DNA of 64,000 bases, from IMG/VR virus record IMGVR_UViG_3300035698_027074, one strand, 5' to 3'. The DNA is from a virus. Lineage: Duplodnaviria > Heunggongvirae > Uroviricota > Caudoviricetes. A program made the translations under genes and the position numbers. Positions 1,786-57,671 of the stretch are shown in pieces (the first letter of the stretch is position 1; each line of letters opens with the position of its first letter). Under the pieces are notes generated by a model, which had not been told where the DNA came from, did not search any database, and saw only the letters and a list, made by a program, of their open reading frames with translations.

Positions 1786-1860
1786 GGACTCATTTCGGGA
1801 ATCGAACCCAAACCTAGAGGGTCACAACCTCTTATGCTATACCACTACACCAAACGAGTC
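1786..1860 (-). tRNA. tRNA-His (anticodon GTG), no intron, G-1 encoded
   Basis: Reverse complement is GACTCGTTTGGTGTAGTGGTATAGCATAAGAGGTTGTGACCCTCTAGGTTTGGGTTCGATTCCCGAAATGAGTCC. Anticodon stem AGAGG/CCTCT, loop TTGTGAC, T-loop TTCGATT; the extra 5' G pairs with discriminator C, which is the His hallmark. Confidence 0.8.
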
Positions 1861-1867
1861 ATATTTA

Positions 1868-2020
1868 CGGTGGGGAGGAGATTTGAACTCCTGGTACCAT
1901 TTCTGGTACACCACATTTCTGTGTATCAGATTTAGCAGTTTAGCTGCTTTCCAGTTTAACTCTCAAGTTTAGCCCTGTTTTTCGAGTGTGGCTCATTAAA
2001 CCTGACTTTGATACCCCACC
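1868..2020 (-). tRNA. tRNA-Ser (anticodon CGA) with roughly 64-nt intron at the canonical 37/38 position; type II tRNA
   Basis: Acceptor GGTGGGG/CCCCACC with G73. D-arm TCA-AAGTCAGGTTTAA-TGA. Anticodon stem CCACA...TGTGG with loop CTCGAA interrupted by the intron. Long variable-arm hairpin GTACC-AGAAAT-GGTAC. T-arm AGGAG-TTCAAAT-CTCCT. The intron contains three TAAACT repeats. Confidence 0.6.
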
Positions 2021-2025
2021 ATCAA

Positions 2026-2182
2026 TGGCGGTGACAGGATTTGAACCTGTGTTGTTATCCACTAAGGTCGAGATTTCTCCGCGTTTTATCTTTTAAGTTT
2101 CGTGCATCTAAGTTTCACGCTAAGATTTGAGTTTCACGCTTCTTAGTCTCGTGCGTTCGACCAGACTCCGCTACACACCGCC
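2026..2182 (-). tRNA. tRNA-Leu-like type II tRNA with roughly 66-nt intron in the anticodon loop; anticodon ambiguous (AAG if cut canonically, or UAA)
   Basis: Acceptor GGCGGTG/CACCGCC with A73 (Leu identity). D-loop GAGTCTGGTCGAA matches the archaeal Leu pattern. Anticodon stem CGAGA...TCTCG separated by the intron. Long variable arm, T-arm ACAGG-TTCAAAT-CCTGT. It lies only 5 nt from the Ser gene. Confidence 0.55.
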
Positions 2183-2347: not shown

Positions 2348-2623
2348 TTATCTTCTCCTGGTTACCCTTTCCCATCTATCAGCTAATTTGCCAGAATAAA
2401 TATAATCCCATACACAAATCTCTCTGTCCGTATATAGTCTTTTCTTCTTGAAGTTCTTAGGGTCTACAAAAATCACATAAAAATGGTCATGACCAGACTT
2501 TGGAAATATCTTTGTCACATGTGCATAATTTGTTGATTTAAATTGTTTAGAATGAGTTCTAAATGTCATTCCTACCTTTACATTTTTCATTTTTGGTTTT
2601 TTTAATCTTACAATTCTTGACAT
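2348..2623 (-). CDS. Hypothetical basic protein (91 aa)
   Basis: ORF track; lysine/arginine-rich, co-directional with its neighbours. Confidence 0.4.
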   Translation of the reverse strand: MSRIVRLKKPKMKNVKVGMTFRTHSKQFKSTNYAHVTKIFPKSGHDHFYVIFVDPKNFKKKRLYTDREICVWDYIYSGKLADRWERVTRRR

Positions 2624-2929
2624 ATTTTCACCTTCACATTAACTTCAATTTTTTATAATCATTAAGTTAACAATTTCCTCTCTTATAACCAGATTTCTTT
2701 CCCTTTCTTCCAGATTTATACATAGCAGACCCTTTTCTTGGACCTTTTCCATCTCTATCTGACATTTTTCACACCTTTTGTTCCTTAATCCATTTTCTTA
2801 TTTTCTTGTTGTTTGTTGAACCTAACAATCCCAATTTTAATCCTTTTCTAAATTGTTTACTTTCACCTTTTATCTCTTTCTTCCAATATCTTTTATAATT
2901 ATTCAATGTTTTTTTCATTTGTTTCACCC

Positions 2930-3271
2930 TTAAAAGAACATAAAACCAGATAATGCTCTAGCAATTGTTATCATAACAAATAACACTATTAAGATAGGTA
3001 TCTGTGATAAAATCAAATATATTATCCATCCCTTTCTTTTTTTATGTTTGGTCTTTATAATTTTTATGATAGACATAATCAATGCAGTCAAAGAATATGG
3101 GACCAGATAAAATAATGATATAAAACCAGATATGAATGGTAATCCTATGTTTTCATACAAAAACCCTATTATTGTAAGTAATATTACAGATATGAACATA
3201 AAATAATTTATTCCTAAGAAAATCCATCTTAGTTTAATTTTTTTTGGTTTTTTTCTTTTCACCATATACAT
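2930..3271 (-). CDS. Hypothetical membrane protein (113 aa, about 3 TM helices)
   Basis: Hydrophobic stretches ISVILLTIIGFLY, LFYLVPYSLTALIMSIIKII, IIYLILSQIPILIVLFVMI. Confidence 0.45.
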   Translation of the reverse strand: MYMVKRKKPKKIKLRWIFLGINYFMFISVILLTIIGFLYENIGLPFISGFISLFYLVPYSLTALIMSIIKIIKTKHKKRKGWIIYLILSQIPILIVLFVMITIARALSGFMFF

Positions 3272-3522
3272 TACCCTTTAGGATGTGCTTTCATCCATTT
3301 CATTGTGAATTTATATGCCTTCAACTTGGTTTTCAGAACCTTAATTGTCCTTCCACCACCAGATTTGGTTGTTCCACCTTTCATAACATTACTGACCATT
3401 ACGTGATATGGAGATACACCAAAAACTCCTCTAATTGATATACTTCTTTTCTTTGGAACAAACCATCTATCTTTGCTCCATTTATCTTTTTTCCATCTTC
3501 CTATTTTTGGCATCTTTTTCAC
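3271..3522 (-). CDS. Hypothetical small basic protein (83 aa), paralog of 3519..3731
   Basis: K/R-rich; shares a G(I/V)SPY...GG motif with the adjacent ORF. The antisense plus-strand ORFs are Phe-rich artefacts of AAA codons. Confidence 0.4.
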   Translation of the reverse strand: MKKMPKIGRWKKDKWSKDRWFVPKKRSISIRGVFGVSPYHVMVSNVMKGGTTKSGGGRTIKVLKTKLKAYKFTMKWMKAHPKG

Positions 3523-3731
3523 CTTTTCTTTTTAGGATAATGTCTTCCCCAAATTATAGCATAAGCTCCACCGACTTTCCTGTATTTACCTTTTCTATAA
3601 GGAGAAATTCCATATCTTTCCTTGAATGTACTGGTAGTTATTATTTTAGTCCTTCCTATTTTCTTATCAGTCCATTTATCAAGAATTTCAACCTTCCATT
3701 TGACAGATGTTCTTTTCTTTTTTCTTACCAT
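3519..3731 (-). CDS. Hypothetical small basic protein (70 aa)
   Basis: K/R-rich, 4-nt overlap with the downstream gene, motif YGISPYRKGKYRKVGG. Confidence 0.4.
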   Translation of the reverse strand: MVRKKKRTSVKWKVEILDKWTDKKIGRTKIITTSTFKERYGISPYRKGKYRKVGGAYAIIWGRHYPKKKR

Positions 3732-3765
3732 ATTAATCTAATTAATTATATAACACCTTGAATAT

Positions 3766-4002
3766 TTAAATCTTTTTCAATATCTCATAAACGAATTCTG
3801 GGACTCTCTCTTTTGTTTGTATCTCCATGAATTTGATTGCAGTTCTCTTGTTTCCATCAAAAAATGGGTGTCTCTCTGCAATTATCTTTGCTATCTCTAT
3901 GTTTGTCTTGTTTGCAATACTATCTAAATCCCCGTCATACCTTATAGAACCGTCATGGAACTGTTTGTTTATCTCAATTATCTTGTTTTTCATAAAATTC
4001 AC
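3766..4002 (-). CDS. doc: Fic/Doc-family protein fragment (Doc-type motif HPFFDGNKRTA), 78 aa
   Basis: HxFx(D/N)(A/G)NKR is the Doc toxin active-site signature. The protein is shorter than canonical Doc and may start at GTG 4002 or ATG 3993. A 55-aa Cys-rich ORF (MSYRCCKCKVRC...) sits immediately upstream. Confidence 0.55.
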   Translation of the reverse strand: MNFMKNKIIEINKQFHDGSIRYDGDLDSIANKTNIEIAKIIAERHPFFDGNKRTAIKFMEIQTKERVPEFVYEILKKI

Positions 4003-4175
4003 TCTACTTTTATATTAGGTCTCCTTTTGAAACCCATTCTATGGTCTACTGGGTCAAACCAAAAATATTCTTTATGACCACAGTGGATACAGGGTTCGTT
4101 TGTATCAAACGTACCATAACTCATACTACATCTCACCTTGCATTTACAACACCTGTAACTCATACCATCTCCCCA

Positions 4176-4808
4176 TTAGAAGTTTGTTTCATTATTAACA
4201 CCCAATTTGTTTGATATAAGAGGTTTTCTCATCCAATGTTTTGAATCCTCTAGTTCTTTTTGAAATTTATGAGTAGTGTACTTGAACATCTGAATGTCAT
4301 TCCTTAGTGACTTAACAATAAACCCTTCCATTTGTTCTGAACCAAAGTTTGAAGTTCCTATGAGTTTTTTTGATTTTTCCAGTGTGGTTATTCCTGAAAA
4401 GAGAACTGGTACTATTTCAAACCCAACATCTTTACAAAACTTCCTTTTTTTCCTGTTTGGGAGGAATTTCTGACCTGTCCAGATGTCAAAACATATGAAC
4501 CAATCTGGTAGAAGATTATATGGTATGTTATGTTTAGCAAACATGTATTCCCCATAGACTATCCAACCTCTTGGTATTTTCTTGATTTTATCTAGATTCT
4601 TCCATGCCCATCTTTCAAAATGTCTATATTGTGGGTGTGTTTTACTCTCTATCCACCCTCTTCTACCCTGTAATTTAAATTTGTGTCCCTTCCAATGTAT
4701 TCCGACATTTGCTCCATCTACCTTTTCTTCTATTATGACTTCGTTGTCGAACACTTTCTCTGTATTCCTGAATATCTTTGGGTATTTTTTCCACATTTTA
4801 ATCACCAC
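4176..4808 (-). CDS. ATP-dependent polynucleotide ligase-like nucleotidyltransferase (minimal, 210 aa; Rnl2-like RNA/DNA ligase core)
   Basis: Motif I EEKVDGANVG (KxDG), motif III IVYGEYMF, motif IIIa FICFDIW, motif IV MEGFIVKS, motif V KYTTHKFQK, in the canonical order. Confidence 0.6.
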   Translation of the reverse strand: MVIKMWKKYPKIFRNTEKVFDNEVIIEEKVDGANVGIHWKGHKFKLQGRRGWIESKTHPQYRHFERWAWKNLDKIKKIPRGWIVYGEYMFAKHNIPYNLLPDWFICFDIWTGQKFLPNRKKRKFCKDVGFEIVPVLFSGITTLEKSKKLIGTSNFGSEQMEGFIVKSLRNDIQMFKYTTHKFQKELEDSKHWMRKPLISNKLGVNNETNF

Positions 4809-6956: not shown

Positions 6957-6999
6957 TATCGTTTGGGTACTAATAGGTATTAGAATAAGAAAAAAAGGT

Positions 7000-7103
7000 T
7001 GCCCCGCTGGGAGTCGAACCCAGTTTGACGGTTTACTCTTATGGTAAATTCAGATTACGTTTATTCAAAGACCGCCGTCCTTTACCACACTAGACTACGG
7101 GGC
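7000..7103 (-). tRNA. tRNA-Gln-like (anticodon TTG) with roughly 31-nt intron at 37/38; possible A1/A72 mismatch
   Basis: Reverse complement GCCCCGTAGTCTAGTGTGGTAAAGGACGGCGGTCTTTGA[intron]AACCGTCAAACTGGGTTCGACTCCCAGCGGGGCA. Anticodon stem GCGGT/ACCGT, loop CTTTGA|A, T-arm CTGGG-TTCGACT-CCCAG. The acceptor register is ambiguous. Confidence 0.5.
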
Positions 7104-7107
7104 TGTA

Positions 7108-7180
7108 TAGTCCCTATCGGATTCGAACCGATGCCAACAGTTCCAAAGACTGTTATCCTTGTCCACTAGACGAAGGGACT
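7108..7180 (-). tRNA. tRNA-Gln (anticodon TTG), no intron
   Basis: AGTCCCTTCGTCTAGTGGACAAGGATAACAGTCTTTGGAACTGTTGGCATCGGTTCGAATCCGATAGGGACTA. Acceptor AGTCCCT/AGGGACT with A73 matches archaeal tRNA-Gln; anticodon loop CTTTGGA. Confidence 0.8.
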
Positions 7181-7184
7181 GTGA

Positions 7185-7274
7185 TGGGAAGTATGGGATT
7201 TGAACCCATATATCATGCGTTCTTGGAAATAAATCATCCAAGGCACGGGTGATGCCAAATTACACTAACTCCCC
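7185..7274 (-). tRNA. tRNA-Pro (anticodon TGG) with 17-nt intron at the canonical position
   Basis: Acceptor GGGGAGT/ACTTCCC with A73. Anticodon stem CGTGC...GCATG, loop CTTGGA|intron TGATTTATTTCCAAGAA|C. T-arm ATGGG-TTCAAAT-CCCAT. Confidence 0.7.
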
Positions 7275-7686
7275 CTTTCACTTTTATTATATCATTCCAT
7301 CTCATTCCGAAAATATTCATACAAAAATGAACTCCTTCATGACATTTGCCACACAATAAAACCCATTTTTCTTTTTCTTTTATTGCTTTCCTGAGTTCTT
7401 TTGTACTACTTCTATGTCTCTTTCCATCTTTTTTGTGTAAAAACATCCTCTTATTATCTTTTCTACTAATTCCACAGAAAAAACATTCTATTCCAAATAC
7501 TTCATCCCTCTTTTTCCGCAGATTTTTCCTCCATTCTCTTCTACATTCATTGTTTCTTTTTTTAATTTCATTTTCTGTTAATTTTACTCTTTTTTTACTG
7601 GTTGGGAGACCTAACTTTTTTCTTCTTGCCCATTCTCTCTGGTATTCTCTGTTTTTTTGTTTATCTTTATATGGTATACATATCAC
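7234..7686 (-). CDS. HNH endonuclease-family protein (150 aa, very basic)
   Basis: CFFCG...LLCGKCHEGVHFC, i.e. the CxxC...CxxCH HNH zinc-finger nuclease motif. Its 3' end overlaps tRNA-Pro by about 40 nt. Confidence 0.55.
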   Translation of the reverse strand: MICIPYKDKQKNREYQREWARRKKLGLPTSKKRVKLTENEIKKRNNECRREWRKNLRKKRDEVFGIECFFCGISRKDNKRMFLHKKDGKRHRSSTKELRKAIKEKEKWVLLCGKCHEGVHFCMNIFGMRWNDIIKVKGGVSVIWHHPCLG

Positions 7687-7736: not shown

Positions 7737-8294
7737 TCAACTGATTCCTTGTCTTCCGAATATCATTTTAGATTTCTCCATTACTTTTTTGTGGAATTCT
7801 CTTACTGCCTCTTTGTGTATTCGTTGGTATCTTTTCTGGGACATTCCTCCTTTCCTGGTTTTTCTTGGTATGGGAGATGACATCTTTTTCAAGATTACTT
7901 CCCTACCATTCACTTCTTTTGAAATGACTGCTCTGTCCTTTGAAATATTCACCAAACCTACTATTTTTTGTGGTTCCAACATCTTTTTCAATGGTCTGAT
8001 GTAAAATTTACCGTCACAATAGTAGATTTTTTCAAATATTTCGTATCTTGGGTATATCACATGTAATTCCTTTCCTGAAGTAAACAATGCAATTCCTTTC
8101 TCGAATGGCTTGTTTTTCTTCAGATATTCAATCATTTTCTTCAGTCCCTTCAACACATCCTTCCTGACAACTCTTGATTTCACATTTCTTGCTGTTGAGA
8201 TTTCACTGTTTAGTCTGTTTAATGTGTTCTGTTCTTGTCCTGGTGGACAATATACACTTATCAGACTTGTTCCTCGTCCTTTTATTTTTGCCAA
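7737..8294 (-). CDS. Truncated peptide-chain release factor aRF1-like protein (domains 1-2 only, 185 aa) with a non-canonical GGMSQ in place of GGQ
   Basis: Aligns by eye to eRF1. GTSLISVYCPPGQ resembles GTSMISLIIPPKDQ. NVKSRV resembles the NIKS stop-recognition motif. YYCDGKFYIRPL resembles LYLCDNKFHTEAL. PRKTRKGGMSQKRYQRI resembles KKHGRGGQSALRFARL. The ORF stops where domain 3 would begin. Confidence 0.6.
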   Translation of the reverse strand: MAKIKGRGTSLISVYCPPGQEQNTLNRLNSEISTARNVKSRVVRKDVLKGLKKMIEYLKKNKPFEKGIALFTSGKELHVIYPRYEIFEKIYYCDGKFYIRPLKKMLEPQKIVGLVNISKDRAVISKEVNGREVILKKMSSPIPRKTRKGGMSQKRYQRIHKEAVREFHKKVMEKSKMIFGRQGIS

Positions 8295-8455: not shown

Positions 8456-8525
8456 TCCCCCACGTCTGAATTGAACAGACTCCAATGGTTTTACAGACCA
8501 CGATGCACCTTTACACCTGTGAGGG
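8456..8525 (-). tRNA. tRNA-Tyr (anticodon GTA), no intron
   Basis: CCCTCACAGGTGTAAAGGTGCATCGTGGTCTGTAAAACCATTGGAGTCTGTTCAATTCAGACGTGGGGGA. C1-G72 (archaeal/eukaryal Tyr identity), anticodon stem GTGGT/ACCAT, loop CTGTAAA, A73. Confidence 0.65.
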
Positions 8526-8796
8526 TTAAAATGACCTCCCACAGAAATGTAAGAATGTTAGTAAAATCTGACGCTTGAAGTGTAAGATTCTGACAGAAAA
8601 AGTGAAAGGTCTAACCAATGCTCCCGCTATGCGGCGGGATACTGTTGTGGATAGTTTCCTTTCATGTTCATTTTTATCACGTTATCATTAATGGAGGTTA
8701 TTTGAGTATAATACTCAGGGAACCCCCAACCCTCTGTCTCCCTAATTTTTTTTCATTTATCATAAAATGTCACACGTTGGTCTACCCGTGACACTG

Positions 8797-40688: not shown

Positions 40689-41708
40689 TCATTTTATCAC
40701 ACCAAATTGATTTTTTCTTATATTTTTCTCAGTTATTTCAAAATATTTGTTTTTCAATGATTTTTTTAATAATTTAGAAACAGAATTTATACTCACATTA
40801 TATAATTTTGAAATTTCTTTGAGTGTTGTTCCATTTAAATATTTTTTTTTCACATTGTCTCTCTTATTTTTCATTCTTATTTGGGGTGTATTATTCATCA
40901 AATTAATAACATCAAAATCAATCAAACAACATCTTGGTTTCTTTCCATGTAATAAACACCACACTATCCTCTCTTTGATACCCATTATTTTTGATATTTT
41001 TCTCCTCCCAAATCCAAAATTAATTCTATAATATTTTATTTTTTCATAATCTTTTTTACTTATGATTTTTAAAGGATTTATTTCTAGATATTTATTTATT
41101 TTATACTGTTTTCTTTTAATTGTAAAACCTATTTTTTCATTAAATTTTTTAAGATTTCTAACATTTGATATATTTAAATTAAATACGATATTGTTTTTAA
41201 CTGTCCTTCTCTTTACTGTTAATATTTTTGATTCGATTCCTATTTTGTTTAAAAGTTCCCATATTTGAAACAATCCATTTCTATTAATACTTTGAATACT
41301 AATAGTACAACCAGAAAAACTACCTTCTGAATCAACATAACCTTTTAAAAAATTACAAATAATATTTTCATTTTTAGAATTCATTATTTCTCTAGGAACA
41401 GCCCATGATTTTGTTCTGAATAACCCAAATTTTTTTTCTATATAATTTATTAAAATGATGGAATTAATCCCAGTATAAAAAATCCCTTTACTTTCAAAAA
41501 AGAATGACTTACCAAACTTTTTTTTGACTTCATTCTTAAATTTAAGAACAAACTCTTTATCCTTTGCAGATAAACGGATTTTACCAGATTTTTGATATTT
41601 TGAAATAGACCCATCACCACATAAAGTACCCAAAATGTATGAAAAGGAATTTGTAATATCCATCCTATTTAGATTCATTGTTTTATTTCTCATTCTTCTC
41701 CACCACAT
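40689..41708 (-). CDS. LAGLIDADG homing endonuclease-family protein (two motifs) with a C-terminal HTH domain, free-standing, 339 aa
   Basis: YILGTLCGDGSI and FLKGYVDSEGSF (two LAGLIDADG-type motifs); C-terminal TLKEISKLYNVSINSVSKLLKK helix-turn-helix. Confidence 0.6.
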   Translation of the reverse strand: MWWRRMRNKTMNLNRMDITNSFSYILGTLCGDGSISKYQKSGKIRLSAKDKEFVLKFKNEVKKKFGKSFFFESKGIFYTGINSIILINYIEKKFGLFRTKSWAVPREIMNSKNENIICNFLKGYVDSEGSFSGCTISIQSINRNGLFQIWELLNKIGIESKILTVKRRTVKNNIVFNLNISNVRNLKKFNEKIGFTIKRKQYKINKYLEINPLKIISKKDYEKIKYYRINFGFGRRKISKIMGIKERIVWCLLHGKKPRCCLIDFDVINLMNNTPQIRMKNKRDNVKKKYLNGTTLKEISKLYNVSINSVSKLLKKSLKNKYFEITEKNIRKNQFGVIK

Positions 41709-42909: not shown

Positions 42910-43292
42910 ACTCCTATAAATGTAATAATCATTCCAAAAGTTGAGAACCCAAGACCCATTAATTGAGAAGATGTTAGAACCTCATTAAGAATTTTTGTAT
43001 TGAGGTACATATTTATCAATAAAATTGGGATTCCCATTCCCATGAAAGCAACAATGACCTTACTTGCGTCTGTTAGAGAAAATGCCCACATTGTTACTCC
43101 CCACATCACAAAATTCAATGATAAAATCAAAATTGCATGGGGGTTTGTTAGTAATTTAAACCAAGTATCAAAACTCAAGAAACTCTTTAATGTTATCTCT
43201 CCAAAACTTGTCATTATGTATTTCTTTGATATATTAATGAAAATATTCACTAAACTCACCAACACAACTAATCCCCATACCAATAATCTCAC
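42882..43292 (-). CDS. Small 4-TM membrane protein (136 aa), candidate ArnE/F- or GtrA-like flippase partner of the adjacent GT2
   Basis: Four hydrophobic helices; overlaps the GT2 gene. Function is inferred from context only. Confidence 0.35.
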   Translation of the reverse strand: MRLLVWGLVVLVSLVNIFINISKKYIMTSFGEITLKSFLSFDTWFKLLTNPHAILILSLNFVMWGVTMWAFSLTDASKVIVAFMGMGIPILLINMYLNTKILNEVLTSSQLMGLGFSTFGMIITFIGVWFVTGGVN

Positions 43293-43918
43293 TTCTTATC
43301 ACCTTCTAATAATATTACTGTTTTAGTGTTTCCCATCCATTTGACCTTGACTTTTCCTTCTTTTTCTAAAATATCAACATATTTTGAAACTGTTGCAGAA
43401 CATATAGTTGATTTCTTTGCAATTTTATTAATCCATGTAAATTTTCCCAAATCACGTATTGTATCCAAAATATGTTCTTTTACAAGGCCATGAGACCCAG
43501 AACTTTTTCTGTATTTTGCCCATTTTCCCCCATTATTATAAAGAGGATTAAGTTTATTTATCAATTTTTTTTCTGACTCCAATATTTCTTTCCAATCTTT
43601 ATCATTTTCATTTTTCATTTTAATATAAGAAAAATATTTTACCTCATCAAAATGTAAACTGTTGCTTTTATGACCTTCTCTAATTCTTTTACCTATATTT
43701 GAACTGGCACCAATATATAATGGTTCCTTTCTTTCATTAAATAATATATATAAACCAGAAATTTTGAAAAGTTTTTCTATATCCTCTATTTCTATCATAT
43801 CAGAGTTTTCTTTTTTAATAAGTTCTGATATAACATCTGCTAACCTTTTCTTATTCATATCTATTTTAATTTTTGAAAGTTTACTCCAGTCACCATCATA
43901 AACCTTAACATTCTTCAT
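43289..43918 (-). CDS. GIY-YIG nuclease-family protein with a C-terminal winged-helix domain, 209 aa
   Basis: ISGLYILFNERKEPLYIGASSNIGKRIREGH...NKLNPLYN (GIY...YIG...R...E...N); C-terminal CSATVSKYVDILEKEGKV. Confidence 0.55.
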   Translation of the reverse strand: MKNVKVYDGDWSKLSKIKIDMNKKRLADVISELIKKENSDMIEIEDIEKLFKISGLYILFNERKEPLYIGASSNIGKRIREGHKSNSLHFDEVKYFSYIKMKNENDKDWKEILESEKKLINKLNPLYNNGGKWAKYRKSSGSHGLVKEHILDTIRDLGKFTWINKIAKKSTICSATVSKYVDILEKEGKVKVKWMGNTKTVILLEGDKK

Positions 43919-44218
43919 AAAAAATATGTTATCTTTTTATATTTATATACTTTTATCTTTTTACCACTATAAAGTTATCAACAAGTATCATCTGATAACT
44001 TTATATACTTGTTTGCACAATAATAATTATGAAAAAAAATATAAAACCCCATTGTTGGGAAAAATCCAAGAGGAACGTGTTGGTAGATAAAATTAATCCT
44101 TTCTTCCACCAACATGGAAAAATAAAAATTTTTTTCTTAACTCACCGTTCAATTCCTCGATTCCAGTCAACATTGGGGTTTATGGTTTTTCCAAAAAAGT
44201 CACTAAATTGGTGAAATT

Positions 44219-44536
44219 ATGTATAAATATAATCTTGAACCCGATGTTAAAAGAATAATGAATATTGTTCCTGTTTTTTCTTCTAAAAGGGCATTACAAC
44301 TATTGATGAAGATGAATAAGTTTGAAGAACCACTTACAACATATAGAATTATAAAATTGGTAACAAACACCTCTAAACCAGTTGTTGGTTGTACGTGGTA
44401 CAATGCAATGAGAATACTGAGAGAATCGGGGTGTGTTGTAACTATCAAAGATAAATTCTCAAAACTCAAAAGGTATAGAATAAGTAAAAGGGGAATTAAA
44501 GTACTTGAATTCCTCAATGAGATGGTAGAAACATGA
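44219..44536 (+). CDS. Winged-helix transcriptional regulator (ArsR/TrmB/MarR-like), 105 aa
   Basis: RALQLLMKMNKFEEPLTTYRIIKLVTNTSKPVVGCTWYNAMRILRESGCV. Confidence 0.5.
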   Translation: MYKYNLEPDVKRIMNIVPVFSSKRALQLLMKMNKFEEPLTTYRIIKLVTNTSKPVVGCTWYNAMRILRESGCVVTIKDKFSKLKRYRISKRGIKVLEFLNEMVET

Positions 44537-44817
44537 AAGGTTCGTTTGCTATTGCATTAGTTATATCATTAGTATTTGTTGCAGGGTTATTCTTATTATA
44601 TCTTATAACTTACACATACAACCCACCAATGAATCGGAGGGTATGTTGTGAAGAGATGTGTAAAGACAAAGAACTAACATTTTATGAAACCAAATATATA
44701 GAAAAGACGTTAATGTGTATTTGTAAAGATAAGTCAGGGTCATTTAGTGATTTTGAATTAAATGATGATGTTTGTATTAAAATACTAGGTGGTAACAATG
44801 AAACAGAAAATGGGTAA
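44533..44817 (+). CDS. Small membrane-anchored Cys-rich protein (94 aa)
   Basis: N-terminal TM then a Cys-rich ectodomain; 4-nt overlap with the upstream gene. Confidence 0.4.
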   Translation: MKGSFAIALVISLVFVAGLFLLYLITYTYNPPMNRRVCCEEMCKDKELTFYETKYIEKTLMCICKDKSGSFSDFELNDDVCIKILGGNNETENG

Positions 44818-44995
44818 ACATTATTTTTGTCGAATTCCAAACAACGAAATTGTTGATATAAATGGAAAGAATTATGAACTCCATGAACTATTAGAAGAAA
44901 TAAGGATATATTATGCTTCAAGGTCTAAAAAACAAGCTTTAATTCAATTAATAATTGAAAAAAATAAAGAAATTAAAAAGGAGGTAGAAAAGTAA
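44789..44995 (+). CDS. Hypothetical small protein (68 aa)
   Basis: ORF track; stop overlaps the prohibitin start. Confidence 0.35.
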   Translation: MVTMKQKMGKHYFCRIPNNEIVDINGKNYELHELLEEIRIYYASRSKKQALIQLIIEKNKEIKKEVEK

Positions 44996-45888
44996 TGCCA
45001 ATAAAAACAGAAAAAGACCGACCAATGTATGAAATTCCTGGTTATTTGAAAGTAATGATAGGAATTTTTGTAATTTTGGTCATTGGTTTGATTTTTAACC
45101 CCCTTGTATTTGTAGGAGCAGGTGAACGAGGAGTAGTGATGAAGTTCGGAGCGGTACAGGACAAGATAATGGGTGAAGGTTTGAATTTCAAAACACCTAT
45201 TGTTGAATCAGTGGAGAAAATGGATGTTAAAAAACAGAAATATGAAACAGATTCTTCAGCAGCATCAAAGGATTTACAGATAGTCAGTTCAATAGTAGCA
45301 GTGAATTACAGATTGAATGAACATTCAGTTAATTGGTTGTACCAGAATATCGGTTTGAACTATAAACAACTGATAATTGAACCATCTGTACAGGAAGCAG
45401 TGAAAGCAGCGACAGCACAATATACAGCAGAAGAACTAATAACACAAAGACCATTAGTGAGGGATTTGATGTTACAAAAATTCAGAGAAAAAATGTCAGA
45501 ACTTTCAAGTGGCTCTATAATTGTTGAGGATATTAATATCATTGATTTTGATTTCTCAGAAGAGTTTAACGACGCTATTGAAAAGAAAGTTACAGCAGAA
45601 CAGAAAGCATTGGAAGAAGAGTGGAATTTGGAAAAAGTCAAATTTGAAGCACAACAATCTATAGAGAGAGCAACAGCTGAAGCGAAAGCATTACAGCTAC
45701 AGGGAGAATCAGTAAGAGAATCACCAGAACTTATAGAACTTAGAAAAGTTGAAGTTGAAAAATTAAAACTAGAAGTTCAAACTCAAGCAATAGAAATGTA
45801 CAAGGAAAAATGGGATGGTAAATTACCAATGTGGGTAACAGAAGGTAATATGATGCCATTCATTAGTGTGGGAGGGGTCCCAAGTTAA
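44995..45888 (+). CDS. SPFH/Band 7 family protein, prohibitin/HflK-like, 297 aa
   Basis: SD AGGAGGT 8 nt upstream; TM then GERGVVMKFGAVQD...GLNFKTPIVESVEKMDVK...; coiled-coil AEAKALQ. Confidence 0.7.
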   Translation: MPIKTEKDRPMYEIPGYLKVMIGIFVILVIGLIFNPLVFVGAGERGVVMKFGAVQDKIMGEGLNFKTPIVESVEKMDVKKQKYETDSSAASKDLQIVSSIVAVNYRLNEHSVNWLYQNIGLNYKQLIIEPSVQEAVKAATAQYTAEELITQRPLVRDLMLQKFREKMSELSSGSIIVEDINIIDFDFSEEFNDAIEKKVTAEQKALEEEWNLEKVKFEAQQSIERATAEAKALQLQGESVRESPELIELRKVEVEKLKLEVQTQAIEMYKEKWDGKLPMWVTEGNMMPFISVGGVPS

Positions 45889-45927
45889 GTTTTTTTTTCT
45901 TTTTTCTTTTTTTAAGACCAAATATTG
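45889..45927 (+). terminator. T-rich tract (archaeal-type terminator) after the prohibitin-like gene
   Basis: taagtttttttttcttttttctttttttaag. Confidence 0.5.
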
Positions 45928-46088
45928 GAATTCTATTATTAAGTGGTTGTACTAAGAAAGGAGAAGAAAGACCGATATGTATTGGAAACCGTTAAAGATA
46001 AGATATTAAACCTTGAAAAGTCATTAAATAAACTAAACAAATAATTCATATCTATGTAGGATTGAAATAAGTACAATAAAGAGAAGGG

Positions 46089-46388
46089 ATGTTAACATTG
46101 AAAAGTCCATATTATTTCTCATTAAGAGAAGTTAAATTATACTGTTCTAAACTACACTTAAGTACAAAAATTGCAAAAAAATCAAAGAAAATGATGGATA
46201 AGATACGGTCAAATGGTGGAATAGATGGTACATCACCAAAATCATGGTTAGCAGCATCAATATATATTTCTGCAAGTTCAGAGAATGAAATAAGGACACA
46301 AGAAGAACTTTCAGATATAATGTGTTGTGGAAAAAGTACTATAAATGGTAAAATAAAAAGAGTTCTAGAAATCAGTCAGAAATGGTAA
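46089..46388 (+). CDS. Standalone TFB/TFIIB second-cyclin-repeat protein (99 aa)
   Basis: YCSKLHLSTKIAKKSKKMMDKIRSNGGIDGTSPKSWLAASIYISASSENEIRTQEELSDIM...TINGKIKRVLE aligns with the TFB C-terminal repeat (GRSPISVAAAAIYMASQ...KRTQKEIGDIAGV...TIRQSYRLI). It has no zinc ribbon, B-reader or first cyclin repeat, and there is an in-frame stop 12 nt upstream. Confidence 0.55.
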   Translation: MLTLKSPYYFSLREVKLYCSKLHLSTKIAKKSKKMMDKIRSNGGIDGTSPKSWLAASIYISASSENEIRTQEELSDIMCCGKSTINGKIKRVLEISQKW

Positions 46389-47354
46389 TTACCAATTTTG
46401 ACATTTGTTTATTAACCATTCATCAGATATTGAACATTGTTGCATTGTTCTAATTGGATTCTTGTAATAAACATCATAATCCAGACATTCTGTTGGATAC
46501 ATTACACCACGTGTTGACTCTACAAACACCCACCCTTTATCTGGTAACCAAGAAGATAACCATGAATGTCCACCACCAGCTACTAACATTACACCATCTT
46601 CCATCTTTGATGGTCCTACCAAAGAAATTGTCGTCAATTCAGGACATCTACCACTAGGTTTTACACAACCAGTATTTTGATGTGATGCTATCCCCATACA
46701 CCTGAGTAATGCTAAGTTTACTCTTGACATTGTTGAACATACACCCTTGCCAACTTCTATTATACCTGTAGCATCAGTGTCTCTACAATAACTGAGTGAA
46801 TAGATTTCATCTGACAAGTCATATTTTATATTGTTTCTTGTCCATGAGATGGTATTTCTTATTGACTGTTCTGGGTCATCATCGACTCTTAATTCATTTA
46901 CTAGATTTTGTATTGTTTCATCAGAACAACTGAACATATTTTCTTCCAAATAAGAATCTGATATTGAATATTCTAACATGTTGTTCCTATATTCATCTGA
47001 AAAGATTTCCTTTCTTTCACATGTTGAAGTATAGTCTGGTAACCACTCACTATTGAAACAAATATATGGTATATTTCCAAAACAATCCCTTTGCCCTTCA
47101 TAACAATCTATTGAATAACAACTACCATCAAGGCAATTTCCTCCACAAACATCAACTACAACATAACCAACATTCTCCTTACAATACAAAACAAAATTAC
47201 CAGCACATGCGTATTCTCCCACTTCACAATCCATATCTTGGTAACTTATTAACTTCAATCTATAATAAATGAATAAACCACCGAGTATTATAATCACTGG
47301 TATTAAGATTAAAAATACTTTTTTGAATTTTTTATCCTTAGACTTCTTTGCCAT
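46389..47354 (-). CDS. Transglutaminase-like Cys-protease-fold protein with N-terminal TM and a Cys-rich ectodomain, 321 aa
   Basis: GVCSTMSRVNLALLRCMGIASH (the Cys of the TGase core) and later GGGHSWLSSWL...GWVFVESTRG (the His/Asp part). Confidence 0.55.
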   Translation of the reverse strand: MAKKSKDKKFKKVFLILIPVIIILGGLFIYYRLKLISYQDMDCEVGEYACAGNFVLYCKENVGYVVVDVCGGNCLDGSCYSIDCYEGQRDCFGNIPYICFNSEWLPDYTSTCERKEIFSDEYRNNMLEYSISDSYLEENMFSCSDETIQNLVNELRVDDDPEQSIRNTISWTRNNIKYDLSDEIYSLSYCRDTDATGIIEVGKGVCSTMSRVNLALLRCMGIASHQNTGCVKPSGRCPELTTISLVGPSKMEDGVMLVAGGGHSWLSSWLPDKGWVFVESTRGVMYPTECLDYDVYYKNPIRTMQQCSISDEWLINKCQNW

Positions 47355-47433
47355 GTATAATTATTGTAATAAGAAATATTTAAATATTAGTGATGTTATA
47401 TAATTAATTAGTTAATTAGTTGGAGGTAATAAT

Positions 47434-47640
47434 ATGGTAAGAAAATCAAACAGAAAGACCTACAAAAAGAAAACTACAGCTAAGAATGCTAGGAAGAAAG
47501 GTCAGTCTCTTTATAAAGTAAAGGGTGGATACAGATTGACTAAACCAAGAAGAACAAAGAGAAGAACTACTAGAAGAAAAACCACAAGGAGAAGGACTAC
47601 AAAGAGAAAATCCACTAGAAGAAGGTCAAAAAGAAGGTAA
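47434..47640 (+). CDS. Protamine/histone H1-like extremely basic protein (68 aa) with RRTT/KRK repeats
   Basis: SD GGAGGT upstream; MVRKSNRKTYKKKTTAKNARKKG...RRTKRRTTRRKTTRRRTTKRKSTRRRSKRR. Confidence 0.5.
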   Translation: MVRKSNRKTYKKKTTAKNARKKGQSLYKVKGGYRLTKPRRTKRRTTRRKTTRRRTTKRKSTRRRSKRR

Positions 47641-47744
47641 GTAGATGATTTTAATGGGTCTTGGAAATCTAAATGACCGATTTAGGTTTGTTTAGGTTGA
47701 AGAGTAACCCTCTATTCTACTCCTTATAACTAGGTGTCTTTCAA

Positions 47745-48500
47745 ATGAAAAAGAAAAAAAATAGAAAGTGGTTAATTGTTGTTTTATTTATATTTTTCAT
47801 TGGTATTTCTCTTTCTCTCATAAAATTTTTTAATGTTGACTTACCATTTGAAATAAAATGGACTGGTGGTGTTGTAACACATCCTCCAAGTATATGTGAT
47901 GACGTGTCCGTAGAGGATATTTGTGTCAGATGTGTAAAGGAAGATACAAAATATAAATGTTCCTTTGAATTGATAGAAGAAAATGACTGGTATGTTGAAA
48001 GTGGTGATGAAAATTACTATTGTTCACCAACAAGTGCTTTTGAAGATGGAAAGGAAAAGACTTTCATTTGTAGTAATGAAGATTGTTTAAATGATGTTTA
48101 TAATGAAGTTAAGAAATGTACTGGTTCGTATGGACAAGCATATAAAATAGAACAACTGTATGTCAAAGACGAAGATATGCAGAGAATTAAAGAAGGGATT
48201 GAATTAGATAGTGGTGAATATAAACTTTATATAACTGGTGGAACTGAAAGATTTCATAAACTAAAATTTTATGTTGATTTATGTGATGATTCAGATGGTA
48301 TTTATTGTGTTCAAATAAGAATGGAAGGAAGAAAGGGTGTTTTCCCTGAATCATGTTCAATAACTGACAATATTGGATTTGGAACATCGGAAGAAGTTAC
48401 CCTTGTTCCTGGTGTCAGAGAAGTTTTCCTAAAGGTCAATACTCCAACGAAATTGAAAGTATGTGATGTCTACGCAGAAGGGATTTACCTATGGGATTAA
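47745..48500 (+). CDS. Membrane-anchored Cys-rich extracellular protein (251 aa)
   Basis: N-terminal TM LIVVLFIFFIGISLSLI then 14 Cys. Confidence 0.5.
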   Translation: MKKKKNRKWLIVVLFIFFIGISLSLIKFFNVDLPFEIKWTGGVVTHPPSICDDVSVEDICVRCVKEDTKYKCSFELIEENDWYVESGDENYYCSPTSAFEDGKEKTFICSNEDCLNDVYNEVKKCTGSYGQAYKIEQLYVKDEDMQRIKEGIELDSGEYKLYITGGTERFHKLKFYVDLCDDSDGIYCVQIRMEGRKGVFPESCSITDNIGFGTSEEVTLVPGVREVFLKVNTPTKLKVCDVYAEGIYLWD

Positions 48501-48547
48501 TTTAAATATTAGAATACATATATAATTAATTAGTTACTGGTGATTAT

Positions 48548-48748
48548 ATGTGTGGAATTTGTGGAGTTATAAATTTAAAGGGTCTTACAAAGCATGACCT
48601 AGATTATTTTACTGAAGTTTTAAAGAAATCTACTCCTAGAGGGACTGATGCTTCTGGTGTTGCGGTACAAAGTTTATCATATACAAAATCTAGTGTACCA
48701 TCAACTAAATTGGTTAAAACTGACCAGATAAATATAAACCCAGCCTGA
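48548..48748 (+). pseudogene. N-terminal remnant (66 aa) of a class II glutamine amidotransferase / asparagine synthetase (AsnB-like)
   Basis: MCGICGVINLKG...KSTPRGTDASGVAV matches the AsnB N-terminus (MCGI.G......RGPD.SG). The ORF ends after 66 codons with no continuation in any frame. Confidence 0.5.
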
Positions 48749-48864
48749 CACGTCTGTTCATACTGGGGACTTTATAATTATAATTAAATTCCTATATATA
48801 AATAACCATATTAAAAAATAAAAAAAAGAAAAAAAGTCAATTTGGACTAATGTCCATACGTCAG

Positions 48865-51105
48865 TTACAATGGTGTTATTACTGCGGTTTGAAGTGATGT
48901 ACCCTCAATCTTAACTCCTGCGGAATTAAAATCAAGATAATCTTCATATTTCTGTGCAATTTCAGATGCTAGTCTTGTCTCTTCTTTCTCGTACCCTGCT
49001 ATTAGAGTTACTGTTTTACCTTCGGTAAATGCGTCTTCTACAACAAGAATGTACCCTGTGTTGTCAACCCATGCTGAACCCCCACATTTGAAAGTCTCGT
49101 CTAATTTACCTGTATCAACTAATTGTTGAGCTAGGTCATTAGCACAAGGACCCCCAACTAAAACGAGGTTTCTGTCTTTCAAACCAGCTTCATTGTCTAG
49201 TTTTCCAACAGATTGTTTCATTGGATTGATTGTTTCCTTAGTACATCCAGATTCTTCAACGTCTGGTTTACCAAAATATGTCTCTACTTCCAAGTCTTTT
49301 GATGGAACTCTGAAAACTACTGAATCATCTTCACTATTTTCTTCAGGAGAAAGTAAAATTAATCCTGAGTCATCTAATATTTCATTCAAGTCTTCATCAC
49401 CAACATCATAACTTGTTCCTTCAGACATTACTGTTACATCTGTATCTTCTGCAGAACTATCTATTCCGAGTTTGAATTCAGGTGGTTGTGTTGTTGTCCA
49501 TGCATCTGATTTCATATAATCAAATGTCATCCCTCCTACTGAGAACATATCTATAATATCTGAGTTTGTTCCTGTTTCAGAAACACCAACATCTAGACTA
49601 TATGATACATCCCCTACACTTCCATAATTCAGTTCAAATGAATAAACTGTAGATGGATTTCCTGTGTTCAAAATCTCTTCAGATTCGAGAACAATTTTTC
49701 CCATTACATCGTCATAGTATGCAAAGTAAACAGGATAATCTGTTCCTGATACTTCACCAAACAAGACGTAGGCTTTTGAATAACCTGTTCCTGATGGGTC
49801 TACAATTGTTCCACTAACATCAGAGATAATCTCAAAACCGTTAGTTCCTGTTACATAACTTGTTCCACTTGGTAAGTAAATTCTTCTAGAGTCAATAGGT
49901 TCAACTTTAACTTCAGCAAATTTGTCTGTGTTAAAACCAAGAAATCCTAATTCACCAAAATCATTTGGTAATTTGACTTCTGATTCAGACTCGAAATAAA
50001 TCGTGTCTTCTGGTTTATAGACTACTTGAACCGTGTCTCCAACATCAATTACATTGTCCGTTGCAAATCCAATAACTTGGATTCCCCATTCTGTTGTCTC
50101 TGGGAACTCATCCCCATCTTCTACGTCTGCAAAAGTATCGTATATCTTCTCAACAGAACCAGTTTCTCCAACGACTAATTCAACGTATATGTAATCTCCT
50201 GTCTCGAACACTTCAGTTAACTGAATTGTCAAGTCTGCTTCAGATAAATCTTTACTATCACCTATCTTCACAATAGTTGCATCTACTATATTACCACTTT
50301 TGTCTCTTACTTCAACTTTTGCCCAGTCTTCATCACTTCCATATGGAGTGTAAATATCATAATCCCCATATTTTAATGGTGTCGTATCTGTGGCTGAACC
50401 AACTTTTCCCTGTAAAACTTTTATTCTGTTTCCTCCTGTACCAACTATCATGAAATCTTTTCCTAATAGTTGAATACTTACAGGATTTGAATATTCAGGG
50501 TCACTGATTGTTCCTTTTCCATTTGCGTCTGAGAGGTCTAATTGTTTGTCAAAAACATATTCATAAAGAATATCTCCTGAACCAACAACCATCTTTTCCA
50601 TACCATCAATTTTACTTGGACTGACAGCATATCTCATCTCGACTTCGGAAATGTCTATCTGTTCATGGTAATCATAGTCATCTCCTCTCCAAGTGATAAC
50701 ATCATCACTCAATACATCATAATGAAATGTTTTGAGGACTCCATTTCCTGGATAGGAAACACCTAACTTTCCCGATAATGGTATTTCTCTTCTGATACCA
50801 TTTATTACTGCAGTGTCTGTTGACACAACTTCTGTCTCTTTTAAGAGTTCTGGATACCTAGATGCTACATCAAGTGCTCCGATAACATCTGATGTGTGAG
50901 CTTTATGACCCACTACAACATATGTATCAAAATTACTCTCGTCTACCAAATAACTTGGATAGTCTTGTATTACTGTTCCCTGTGATAATATCACAAGGTC
51001 TTCACCACTTGTCCCTCCGCCTGTACCATCCGCTAATGCAATAGTACCAAACGAACTGACGATTGTCATTACTGACAATACCAGTGCTAAGATTTTATCT
51101 TTCAT
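48865..51105 (-). CDS. Large secreted acidic surface protein (746 aa), candidate S-layer/surface glycoprotein
   Basis: Signal peptide MKDKILALVLSVMTIVSSFGTIALA; very D/E/T/S/G-rich, predicted beta-rich; no internal TM. Confidence 0.5.
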   Translation of the reverse strand: MKDKILALVLSVMTIVSSFGTIALADGTGGGTSGEDLVILSQGTVIQDYPSYLVDESNFDTYVVVGHKAHTSDVIGALDVASRYPELLKETEVVSTDTAVINGIRREIPLSGKLGVSYPGNGVLKTFHYDVLSDDVITWRGDDYDYHEQIDISEVEMRYAVSPSKIDGMEKMVVGSGDILYEYVFDKQLDLSDANGKGTISDPEYSNPVSIQLLGKDFMIVGTGGNRIKVLQGKVGSATDTTPLKYGDYDIYTPYGSDEDWAKVEVRDKSGNIVDATIVKIGDSKDLSEADLTIQLTEVFETGDYIYVELVVGETGSVEKIYDTFADVEDGDEFPETTEWGIQVIGFATDNVIDVGDTVQVVYKPEDTIYFESESEVKLPNDFGELGFLGFNTDKFAEVKVEPIDSRRIYLPSGTSYVTGTNGFEIISDVSGTIVDPSGTGYSKAYVLFGEVSGTDYPVYFAYYDDVMGKIVLESEEILNTGNPSTVYSFELNYGSVGDVSYSLDVGVSETGTNSDIIDMFSVGGMTFDYMKSDAWTTTQPPEFKLGIDSSAEDTDVTVMSEGTSYDVGDEDLNEILDDSGLILLSPEENSEDDSVVFRVPSKDLEVETYFGKPDVEESGCTKETINPMKQSVGKLDNEAGLKDRNLVLVGGPCANDLAQQLVDTGKLDETFKCGGSAWVDNTGYILVVEDAFTEGKTVTLIAGYEKEETRLASEIAQKYEDYLDFNSAGVKIEGTSLQTAVITPL

Positions 51106-56715: not shown

Positions 56716-57225
56716 TTAAACACCTGCCATTACCTTTAACTCGGATATTTTTCCTTCCATCTCATCTGGTTCTGTAACTGTCCTTCTTAAAACAGTCAAT
56801 TTCTCCCCTAGTATTCTCAAGTCTTCATCCATTCTATTCGCCTCCCTCATTACATATTCTATAAATCTTTTTGGGGGTTTATAGTTATGTACTTCCATAT
56901 AATGAAAAATCATTCCTGGGAAAATATATTCAATTTTATTCTTATAATCTGGTAGTATTTTCTCACGACTACTTTTATGTGGTTCTTTCCCCTCTGTTAT
57001 ACAAAATTCACACTCATGAAACCCTAGTGTCGCTATCATTGGTCCTGTTTCAAAAAGTTTTCTTAATTTTTTAACAAACTCTTCTGATACATCTCCCTTT
57101 TCATATTCTTCAGTTACATCCAACCAACCCACAGCAACAGTCTTAAATAATTCCTCCTTAAACCCCTCTTTTCTCATTCTCTCTTTTAATTTGTTGTGTA
57201 TGTTCTCTACTTCTTTATTATTCAT
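56716..57225 (-). CDS. Hypothetical protein (169 aa)
   Basis: ORF track. Confidence 0.4.
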   Translation of the reverse strand: MNNKEVENIHNKLKERMRKEGFKEELFKTVAVGWLDVTEEYEKGDVSEEFVKKLRKLFETGPMIATLGFHECEFCITEGKEPHKSSREKILPDYKNKIEYIFPGMIFHYMEVHNYKPPKRFIEYVMREANRMDEDLRILGEKLTVLRRTVTEPDEMEGKISELKVMAGV

Positions 57226-57671
57226 TCTATCACATCCTTATCTAAATTTTCATTCTTTTCTTTCAAAGAATTGAATGCTTTCTCATCTTCGTCCAGTGAC
57301 ATATCATTTTTTGAAGTGGTTTCTTCTTCAAATTGTTCCATTGAAAAATCAAGAAATGTTTTCCAGTCTTCCAACCACTCTTTCCAAATATTTTTGTGTC
57401 TGTTCTTAAGGAAATTGTTCATGTGTGTATATTTTATCGCATTCATTCTATTATAACCATCAAACCTCTGATACATAATCAGGTGTTCTATGAATGCAAA
57501 ATGTATTCCCCTATGACATCTATCACAAACGTCTATTTTCCAATGTTTCAATGAACATTTTGGATTAATTCTTCTCATTACACTCCATGGTATGACATGG
57601 TGTCTTGAAGTTGATTTATTTTTTTCACAAATTTGACATAAACCACCTATTGGCATGTTCTCATCCTCCAT
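57222..57671 (-). CDS. HNH endonuclease-family protein (149 aa)
   Basis: CQICEKNKSTSRHHVIPWS...VCDRCHRGIHF. Confidence 0.5.
   Translation of the reverse strand: MEDENMPIGGLCQICEKNKSTSRHHVIPWSVMRRINPKCSLKHWKIDVCDRCHRGIHFAFIEHLIMYQRFDGYNRMNAIKYTHMNNFLKNRHKNIWKEWLEDWKTFLDFSMEQFEEETTSKNDMSLDEDEKAFNSLKEKNENLDKDVIE

Follow-up and report, generated by a model that had tools for sequence, protein, structure and literature searches.

Split and tri-split tRNAs of Caldivirga maquilingensis and Nanoarchaeum equitans are reportedly the subject of Fujishima et al. 2009 and Randau et al. 2005, and archaeal tRNAs with multiple BHB introns, or with BHB introns at non-canonical positions, are said to have been presented by Sugahara et al. 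2008. In the Caldivirga tri-split tRNA, the anticodon pieces are encoded separately and are swapped in trans, which gives synonymous tRNAs (PMC4033280). This is the nearest known concept to the pair of genes examined here. On the enzyme side, motifs that are relaxed or sit at non-canonical positions need broad-specificity enzymes such as those of TACK and several DPANN lineages, disrupted tRNA genes have been connected with the endonucleases of DPANN archaea, whose tRNA sets could in some cases not be completed (PMC5829648). The pair consists of adjacent tRNA-Leu and tRNA-Ser genes in a 64,000-nucleotide stretch of DNA, all of which was analysed and which is called the window below. Going by this one locus, we put forward that several isoacceptors may come out of one gene by alternative cis-splicing, and rate the proposal at an even chance of being right. 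With the chances balanced in the same way, it would be the first case of alternative tRNA cis-splicing, in which the BHB endonuclease and a ligase would build every isoacceptor of a six-codon amino acid.

The window has a G+C content of 31% and carries nearly every gene on the minus strand. An early reading of it as phage was abandoned because it encodes PCNA, Alba, an AglB/STT3 oligosaccharyltransferase and an S-layer-like protein, and contains BHB introns. The PCNA has its top matches, at ~50% identity, in Aenigmarchaeota (DPANN) MAGs, the archaeal marks include a tRNA-His with encoded G-1 and C73 as well as the Pro and Gln BHB introns, and a search of a phage collection with the window gave no match. 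The replicon is archaeal in type, either a large element of archaea or the genome of a DPANN-like cell, and the original prediction of an intron-rich archaeal-type replicon is upheld. Its count of four intron-containing genes among eight tRNAs stands as far as Ser, Leu, Gln (7104..6999) and Pro (7274..7185) are concerned, but the eighth tRNA is weak. It is a tRNA-Tyr(GUA)-like sequence at 8464-8536 (-), upstream of tRNA-Ala, which standard ARAGORN and Rfam miss and which surfaces only at a lowered ARAGORN threshold. Two neighbouring tRNA-Gln(UUG) genes at 6999-7180 (-) differ in their bodies: one is intron-less, and the other has an A1.A72 mismatch and a strict BHB intron of 31 nt. No EndA gene is seen in the 64-kb window.

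The tRNA-Ser and tRNA-Leu genes lie on the minus strand where they had been predicted (2020..1868 and 2182..2026), and with introns allowed ARAGORN calls both loci, with an intron of 64 nt for Ser and of 66 nt for Leu, but types the Leu locus as Ser(aga). The features are collected in Table 1. On the minus strand the order is Leu, Ser, His, and because the spacers are only 5 and 7 nt the three genes are probably one transcript. The Rfam tRNA model at its gathering score reports Leu, with a 69-nt insertion, and not Ser, which lies below that score. The Ser and Leu identities are supported, with G73 and A73 in place, and all eight predicted spliced products are called tRNA-Ser or tRNA-Leu by ARAGORN. 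[quoted passage not shown]

Some further pairings in the two genes are recorded here. The variable region of Leu (2068..2064, -) has an additional CUUAG, complementary to the default loop CUAAG, and the Leu leader and trailer lengthen the acceptor helix by 3 bp (AAU/AUU). In Ser, 9 bp can form between the D-loop sequence GUCAGGUUU (2006..1998) and the last intron spacer AAAUCUGAU (1934..1926), both on the minus strand, and this pairing is seen in the minimum-energy fold. As modelled, it could hold the Ser precursor in a non-cloverleaf state.

Table 1. Features of the Ser, Leu and neighbouring tRNA genes of the window. A caret marks the cut within a bulge; splice sites and units are those of the proposed scheme.
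Feature	Position	Strand	Remarks
tRNA-His(GUG)	1787..1860	-	encoded G-1, C73; 7 nt downstream of Ser gene
tRNA-Ser gene	1868..2020	-	pre-tRNA 153 nt; G73
Ser 5' exon (up to position 30)	2020..1988	-	
Ser exon helix strand H5' AGCC (tRNA positions 25-28), then bulge AC^A (29-31)	1990..1993	-	proposed 5' splice site 30/31
Ser default anticodon loop CUCGAAA (CGA)	1980..1986	-	partner of CUCGA is UUGAG in the cassette that follows
Ser unit 1, GGCU AA^A CU UGA GA	1961..1974	-	GGCU is the perfect complement of exon AGCC
Ser unit 2, AGUU AA^A CU GGA AA	1948..1961	-	exon 3/4 (plus 5-bp inner helix); unit 1 4/4
Ser unit 3, AGCU AA^A CU GCU AA	1932..1945	-	exon 3/4; units 1 and 2 4/4
Ser common 3' splice site ACAG AA^A, before UGUGG (anticodon stem 3' strand)	1916..1922	-	partner of ACAG is CUG (GGA, GCU cassettes)
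Ser 3' exon (A38 on)	1916..1868	-	
tRNA-Leu gene	2026..2182	-	pre-tRNA 157 nt; A73
Leu 5' exon (up to position 30)	2182..2148	-	
Leu exon helix strand H5' CACG (positions 25-28), then bulge AG^A	2150..2153	-	proposed 5' splice site 30/31
Leu default loop CUAAGAA (AAG)	2140..2146	-	CUAAGA with UCUUAG (2125..2120) forms a 6-bp inner helix
Leu unit 1, CGUG AA^A CU CAA AU	2125..2138	-	CGUG is the perfect complement of exon CACG
Leu unit 2, CGUG AA^A CU UAG AU	2106..2119	-	perfect exon complement; pseudo-cassette CUUAGCG (2124..2118) precedes and gives inner helix
Leu unit 3, CACG AA^A CU UAA AA	2091..2104	-	perfect with units 1 and 2; exon unpaired
Leu common 3' splice site GGAG AA^A, before UCUCG	2074..2080	-	partner of GGAG is CUC or CUU (CAA, UAG, UAA cassettes)
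Leu 3' exon (A38 on)	2074..2026	-	
tRNA-Gln(UUG)	7104..6999	-	strict hBHBh' intron at 37/38; internal control
tRNA-Gln, intron-less	7180..7108	-	
tRNA-Pro(UGG)	7274..7185	-	strict hBHBh' intron at 37/38; internal control

Long introns in the anticodon loop had been predicted for both genes, and insertions of that length are present, but they are not plain introns, and the picture of simply one canonical intron each does not hold. Each insertion (64-66 nt) is an array of 14-nt units made of a 4-nt helix strand, AA^A, CU, the anticodon, and R N. The Ser loop region reads CCACA [CUCGAAA] aacagggcuaaa [CUUGAGA] guuaaa [CUGGAAA] gcagcuaaa [CUGCUAA] aucugauacacagaaa UGUGG, and the Leu loop region reads CGAGA [CUAAGAA] gcgugaaa [CUCAAAU][CUUAGCG] ugaaa [CUUAGAU] gcacgaaa [CUUAAAA] gauaaaacgcggagaaa UCUCG, in which the bracketed heptamers are shaped like anticodon loops, with C32, U33, three nucleotides and a purine. 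The anticodons of the Ser array, CGA, UGA, GGA and GCU, are the complete Ser isoacceptor set, and those of the Leu array are AAG, CAA, UAG and UAA. The Leu anticodon had rightly been called ambiguous, since four different Leu anticodon loops are encoded. The three TAAACT repeats noticed in the Ser intron (GCTAAACTT, GTTAAACTG and GCTAAACTG) are present and exceed chance by shuffles; a better reading would be that in each the 3' bulge (AA^A) is followed by C32-U33 and then by an alternative Ser anticodon, and the Leu array has the same layout with GAAACU. The Leu heptamer CUUAGCG would put C at 37, and looks like a structural partner of CUAAGA rather than a cassette. An A34, as in Leu AAG, is atypical in archaea, and its main role here may be pairing with UCUUAG in the intron helix. 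The Gln and Pro introns of the window contain no cognate cassettes. Tandem Repeats Finder reports nothing on the Ser and Leu arrays because the units are too diverged.

Known kinds of insertion or disruption were compared with the two arrays. A box C/D guide, which the original prediction had suggested for the introns, has pairs of a C box (RUGAUGA) and a D box (CUGA) with a k-turn, as in the archaeal pre-tRNA-Trp that hosts one. Neither intron has a C box, a single CUGA is found (in Ser), and there is no Rfam snoRNA match at E<=1, and the suggestion is dropped. A group I intron is likewise rejected, the insertions being 64-66 nt versus the >200 nt of an intron with a P1-P9 core, with no Rfam intron match. 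The genes are also not split or tri-split, each having all its parts in one run on a single strand (153 and 157 nt).

The register of the units was read by a BHB rule in which both strands of a 4-bp helix have a 3-nt bulge and are cut past its second nucleotide. For Pro and Gln, whose introns in the window are strict, only the cuts set by this rule produce 7-nt loops. The rule was then used on Ser and Leu, taking positions 25-28 as the fixed exon strand and 29-31 as its bulge, and the 4-mer ahead of AAACU complements exon 25-28 as AGCC/GGCU in Ser and CACG/CGUG in Leu. Ser exon AGCC AC^A pairs 4/4 with GGCU AA^A and 3/4 with both AGUU AA^A and AGCU AA^A, and at the AGUU AA^A site CUCGA/UUGAG adds an inner helix of 5 bp. 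In Leu, each of the two CGUG AA^A units pairs 4/4 with exon CACG AG^A, and CUAAGA/UCUUAG gives the second of them an inner helix of 6 bp. At all productive sites so listed for the exon strand, the junction is ...N30^A31-C32-U33 followed by a cognate anticodon. When every intronic site with at most one mismatch to the fixed exon strand is considered, 3 of 4 in Ser and 2 of 3 in Leu are in frame and have a cognate anticodon. The bulge AA^A is common to all eight 3' splice sites, that is, the six units and the two final sites.

How often such a pattern arises without design was gauged on dinucleotide shuffles of the introns. At least three distinct cognate anticodons in context appear in 683/20000 shuffles for Ser (3.4%) and 13/20000 for Leu (0.07%). 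The observed number of productive sites (3 in Ser, 2 perfect ones in Leu) is reached in 0/50000 shuffles for each gene, and even one perfect site is found in only 187/50000 for Ser (0.37%) and 37/50000 for Leu (0.07%). These tests are weakened because they were designed after the pattern was known, as the splicing hypothesis too was framed after the data had been seen; the BHB geometry itself is a fixed external rule. Unconstrained minimum-energy folds give no cloverleaves, and are not taken as evidence by themselves.

In the scheme we propose, each gene would comprise one tRNA body and a cis array of anticodon loops, among which an archaeal endonuclease and ligase would choose. A first step would cut past exon position 30 and past the second A of a unit bulge and ligate the ends, so that upstream cassettes would be lost and A31-C32-U33 restored before the chosen anticodon. 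The imperfect units (Ser 2 and 3, Leu 3) could first be spliced unit to unit, beside a "master" unit; since they pair perfectly with the master unit, such a splice can place them. Two steps would be needed for the UAA cassette, since its unit (Leu 3) is unable to pair with the exon. In the second step, the anticodon stem (5-6 bp) would form, loop positions 32-34 would pair with ACAG AA^A or GGAG AA^A, and cuts 5' after position 37 and 3' before A38 would remove the downstream cassettes. The end state would be a 7-nt loop of the form C-U-NNN-R-A, and the predicted products are tRNA-Ser CGA, UGA, GGA and GCU and tRNA-Leu AAG, CAA, UAG and UAA. Their predicted mature junctions are GAGCCACACU-(CGAA, UGAG, GGAA or GCUA)-AUGUGGUG for Ser and GCACGAGACU-(AAGA, CAAA, UAGA or UAAA)-AUCUCGACC for Leu. 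Such a scheme would be workable only where the synthetase ignores the anticodon. The Ser synthetase does so, and the arrays are found in the Ser and Leu genes only, these being the two type II tRNAs. In H. volcanii, Leu identity depends on A73 and the variable arm, with the anticodon not needed (PMC9976931).

The point of concern is whether such motifs would be cut. The step-1 motifs are relaxed, with an outer helix of 1 bp only, inner helices of 2-6 bp, and bulges AC^A or AG^A plus AA^A, and they pair only if the D stem gives up its last pair and the anticodon stem opens at its top. A strict endonuclease would not cut them. The sequence does have the helix, bulge, flanking helix and in-frame junction of the relaxed, non-canonical BHB classes (HBh'/BHL), and by analogy their cleavage by a broad-specificity host endonuclease is plausible only, because of the PCNA affinity to DPANN and the literature on DPANN EndA. 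The step-2 motif at 37/38 has an outer helix of 5-6 bp with bulges in register, and its central helix has 3/4 pairs for GGA, GCU, CAA, UAG and UAA and 2/4 pairs for CGA, UGA and AAG. For AAG, an inner helix of 4 bp helps. The weak step-2 helices include that of UGA, the cassette in greatest demand.

Codon usage indicates what need there would be for the cassettes. In 36 window ORFs, Ser codons are UCG 2%, UCA 40%, AGU/AGC 31% and UCU/UCC 26%, and the default CGA thus serves 2% of them, as compared to 40% for UGA, 31% for GCU and 26% for GGA. With UCG at that level, a gene for Ser(CGA) only would be of little use, and the cassettes fit the demand, although ordinary Ser and Leu genes may lie elsewhere in the genome, outside the window. 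Leu codons are dominated by UUA, UUG, CUU and CUA, which fits UAA, CAA, AAG and UAG.

Because the units resemble exon segment 25-38, the arrays were probably born when this segment was duplicated in tandem over the exon-intron border, and compensatory changes came later. Where the helix strands depart from the exon copy (AGCC versus GGCU, CACG versus CGUG), the changes are precisely the compensating ones, and the helix differs between the genes with pairing kept, AGCC/GGCU in Ser and CACG/CGUG in Leu. Positions 29-30 are AA in all six units, while the exon copy must pair there in the anticodon stem. The strand changes, the AA at 29-30 and the differing anticodons would fit selection for pairing rather than neutral copies. 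GCU is 2-3 substitutions from the other Ser anticodons, so drift inside a codon box does not explain it; the others within each family are one mutation apart, and to that extent part of the pattern could also come from duplication followed by drift. If the scheme is true, it suggests how a tandem duplication over an exon-intron border, with a near-palindromic 4-mer, can give self-removing repeats that may diverge freely.

The main rival holds that these are ordinary long BHB introns at 37/38, that the repeats are passive vestiges of anticodon-arm duplications, and that the products are Ser(CGA) and Leu(AAG) only. We consider this rather unlikely, and well worth weighing. ARAGORN in intron mode does give a single 64- or 66-nt intron for each gene, the likeness of the units to exon 25-38 is what duplication predicts, adjacent anticodons within a family differ by one substitution, and the default Leu site is hBHBh'-like, with an outer helix of 5 bp and an inner helix of 4 bp. 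Yet the canonical central helix has 2/4 pairs in both genes, as against perfect motifs in Pro and Gln, and in constrained folds, which are indicative only, the gap to the minimum is 6.5-8.4 kcal/mol for the canonical single-intron conformers and 0-5.6 kcal/mol for the alternative ones. Under the rival, the CGA product would also read 2% of the Ser codons and the AAG product would have an A34 that is unusual for an archaeon, and drift leaves GCU, the uniform AA^A, the compensatory changes and the exact register unexplained. Decay of the genes in a region rich in mobile elements, the insertions being slippage products with no role, is improbable to a further degree. It would go with the HNH, LAGLIDADG and GIY-YIG ORFs, the many orphan ORFs and the truncated aRF1-like gene nearby, the irregular Leu body (4-nt connector, weak variable arm) and the Ser score under the Rfam gathering level, but the acceptor, T and anticodon stems are intact, G73 and A73 are retained, every predicted product folds as a tRNA, and the regularity of the units is hard to square with decay.

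Two other accounts strike us as very improbable. The excised intron might itself be the product, with multiple Ser or Leu loop mimics that, as decoy or sponge, would draw off a modification enzyme, an anticodon nuclease or some other loop binder. Each intron has several cognate loop-like heptamers, and an RNA ligase gene lies 2 kb off, as in phage tRNA-repair systems; against this, the heptamers are without anticodon-like stems and are mostly paired or in spacers in predicted folds, and neither the complementarity to exon 25-28 nor the in-frame junctions would be accounted for. An assembly artefact, in which one locus was made by collapsing or chaining reads from several isoacceptor genes whose bodies are identical, is just as poor a prospect. 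Positions 1868-2182 are not covered by any independent contig, the public contigs of the organism (1-4 kb) ending before the locus, but chained genes would repeat whole tRNA halves and not 14-nt units with unique spacers, two adjacent genes have the same layout with different sequences, and the flanks match independent contigs where such contigs exist. Alternative cis-splicing is the reading carried forward below.

Several observations were made on the surroundings of the tRNA genes. An ATP-dependent RNA ligase (PF09414) is encoded at 4176-4808 (-), 2 kb from tRNA-Leu. Its nearest homologues, at ~40% identity, are in large viruses and phages, and some of them adjoin RtcB, Thg1 or T4-type Rnl1; going by sequence, a connection of the ligase with tRNA processing is possible. 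A truncated aRF1-like ORF at 7737-8294 (-), 185 aa with Pfam eRF1_2, has NVKS in place of NIKS and GGM in place of GGQ, and is followed by an HNH-like ORF at 7234-7686 (-) that overlaps the 5' end of tRNA-Pro. A 3.9-kb ENA contig carries an identical copy. Free-standing endonuclease ORFs (LAGLIDADG, GIY-YIG and HNH-like) are found at 40689-41708, 43289-43918 and 57222-57671, all on the minus strand, and homing-type nucleases are dense for a 64-kb stretch. At 18662-40194 (-), adjoining AglB, six paralogous B12-binding radical SAM genes alternate with SAM methyltransferases, an amine-oxidase-like flavoprotein and glycosyltransferases, and the region looks like a large surface-glycan or modification cluster. 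There is a local flip of GC skew and gene orientation at 44000-50000, with plus-strand genes at 44995-45888 and 47745-48500 in the otherwise uniformly minus-strand window.

Relatives were sought in several ways. Exact-protein look-ups find the same organism as 1-4 kb contigs from several samples (JGI 3300005935, 3300031227 and 3300025736; ENA ERZ27316532 and ERZ27315525; SRR8526178), none of them reaching the Ser and Leu genes. A related contig from another sample, JGI 3300031227, has the same 70-aa and 91-aa proteins as window positions 2350-4360 with differing small ORFs in between, which points to strain-level indel variation immediately upstream of the tRNA-Leu gene. The exact 3'-exon words of Ser, Leu and His had no match in viral, metagenome and genome collections, and cassette-order patterns in the collections (for genomes, among the matches listed) gave only chance hits or low-complexity coding repeats with no tRNA context. 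RNA ligase homologues led to unrelated large viruses without such tRNAs. The literature searched on alternative tRNA splicing and multiple anticodons, a search beyond which many subscription papers lie, describes no such gene, nor any cis array of anticodon loops picked by alternative BHB pairing.

If the alternative cis-splicing is real, it would be a new mode of encoding the decoding apparatus, in which RNA folding after transcription picks the anticodon and one gene equals four tRNAs. The incomplete tRNA sets predicted for some archaeal lineages would be explained, and Ser and Leu isoacceptors apparently missing from DPANN, from other reduced archaea and from their elements may hide in "long introns," for which current tRNA finders would give one of several products. 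It would also be a natural bridge from intron-containing to tri-split tRNAs.

The canonical hBHBh' intron at 37/38, represented by Pro and Gln in the window, has the same type of 3' site as Ser and Leu, with a helix, the AA^A bulge and the anticodon stem, whereas the default central helix of Ser and Leu has 2/4 pairs and further in-frame splice sites lie inside. The multi-intron archaeal tRNAs of Thermoproteales, Korarchaeum and ARMAN share introns off 37/38, relaxed motifs (HBh', hBH) and a broad-specificity EndA, and in them too several introns leave one precursor. Known multi-intron genes, however, lead to one product, whereas here an intron at 30/31 with alternative 3' sites would alter the anticodon, and the segment between two introns would be a selectable micro-exon. 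With the split tRNAs of Caldivirga maquilingensis and Nanoarchaeum equitans, the likeness is in a shared body for synonymous tRNAs, an exchangeable anticodon piece and BHB-type joining. Split tRNAs have been shown experimentally, whereas the alternative intramolecular BHB pairing here is a proposal drawn from sequence. The pieces of split and tri-split tRNAs come from separate genes and meet in trans by way of long complementary leaders, while the Ser and Leu genes of the window have their alternatives as 7-nt loops in cis.
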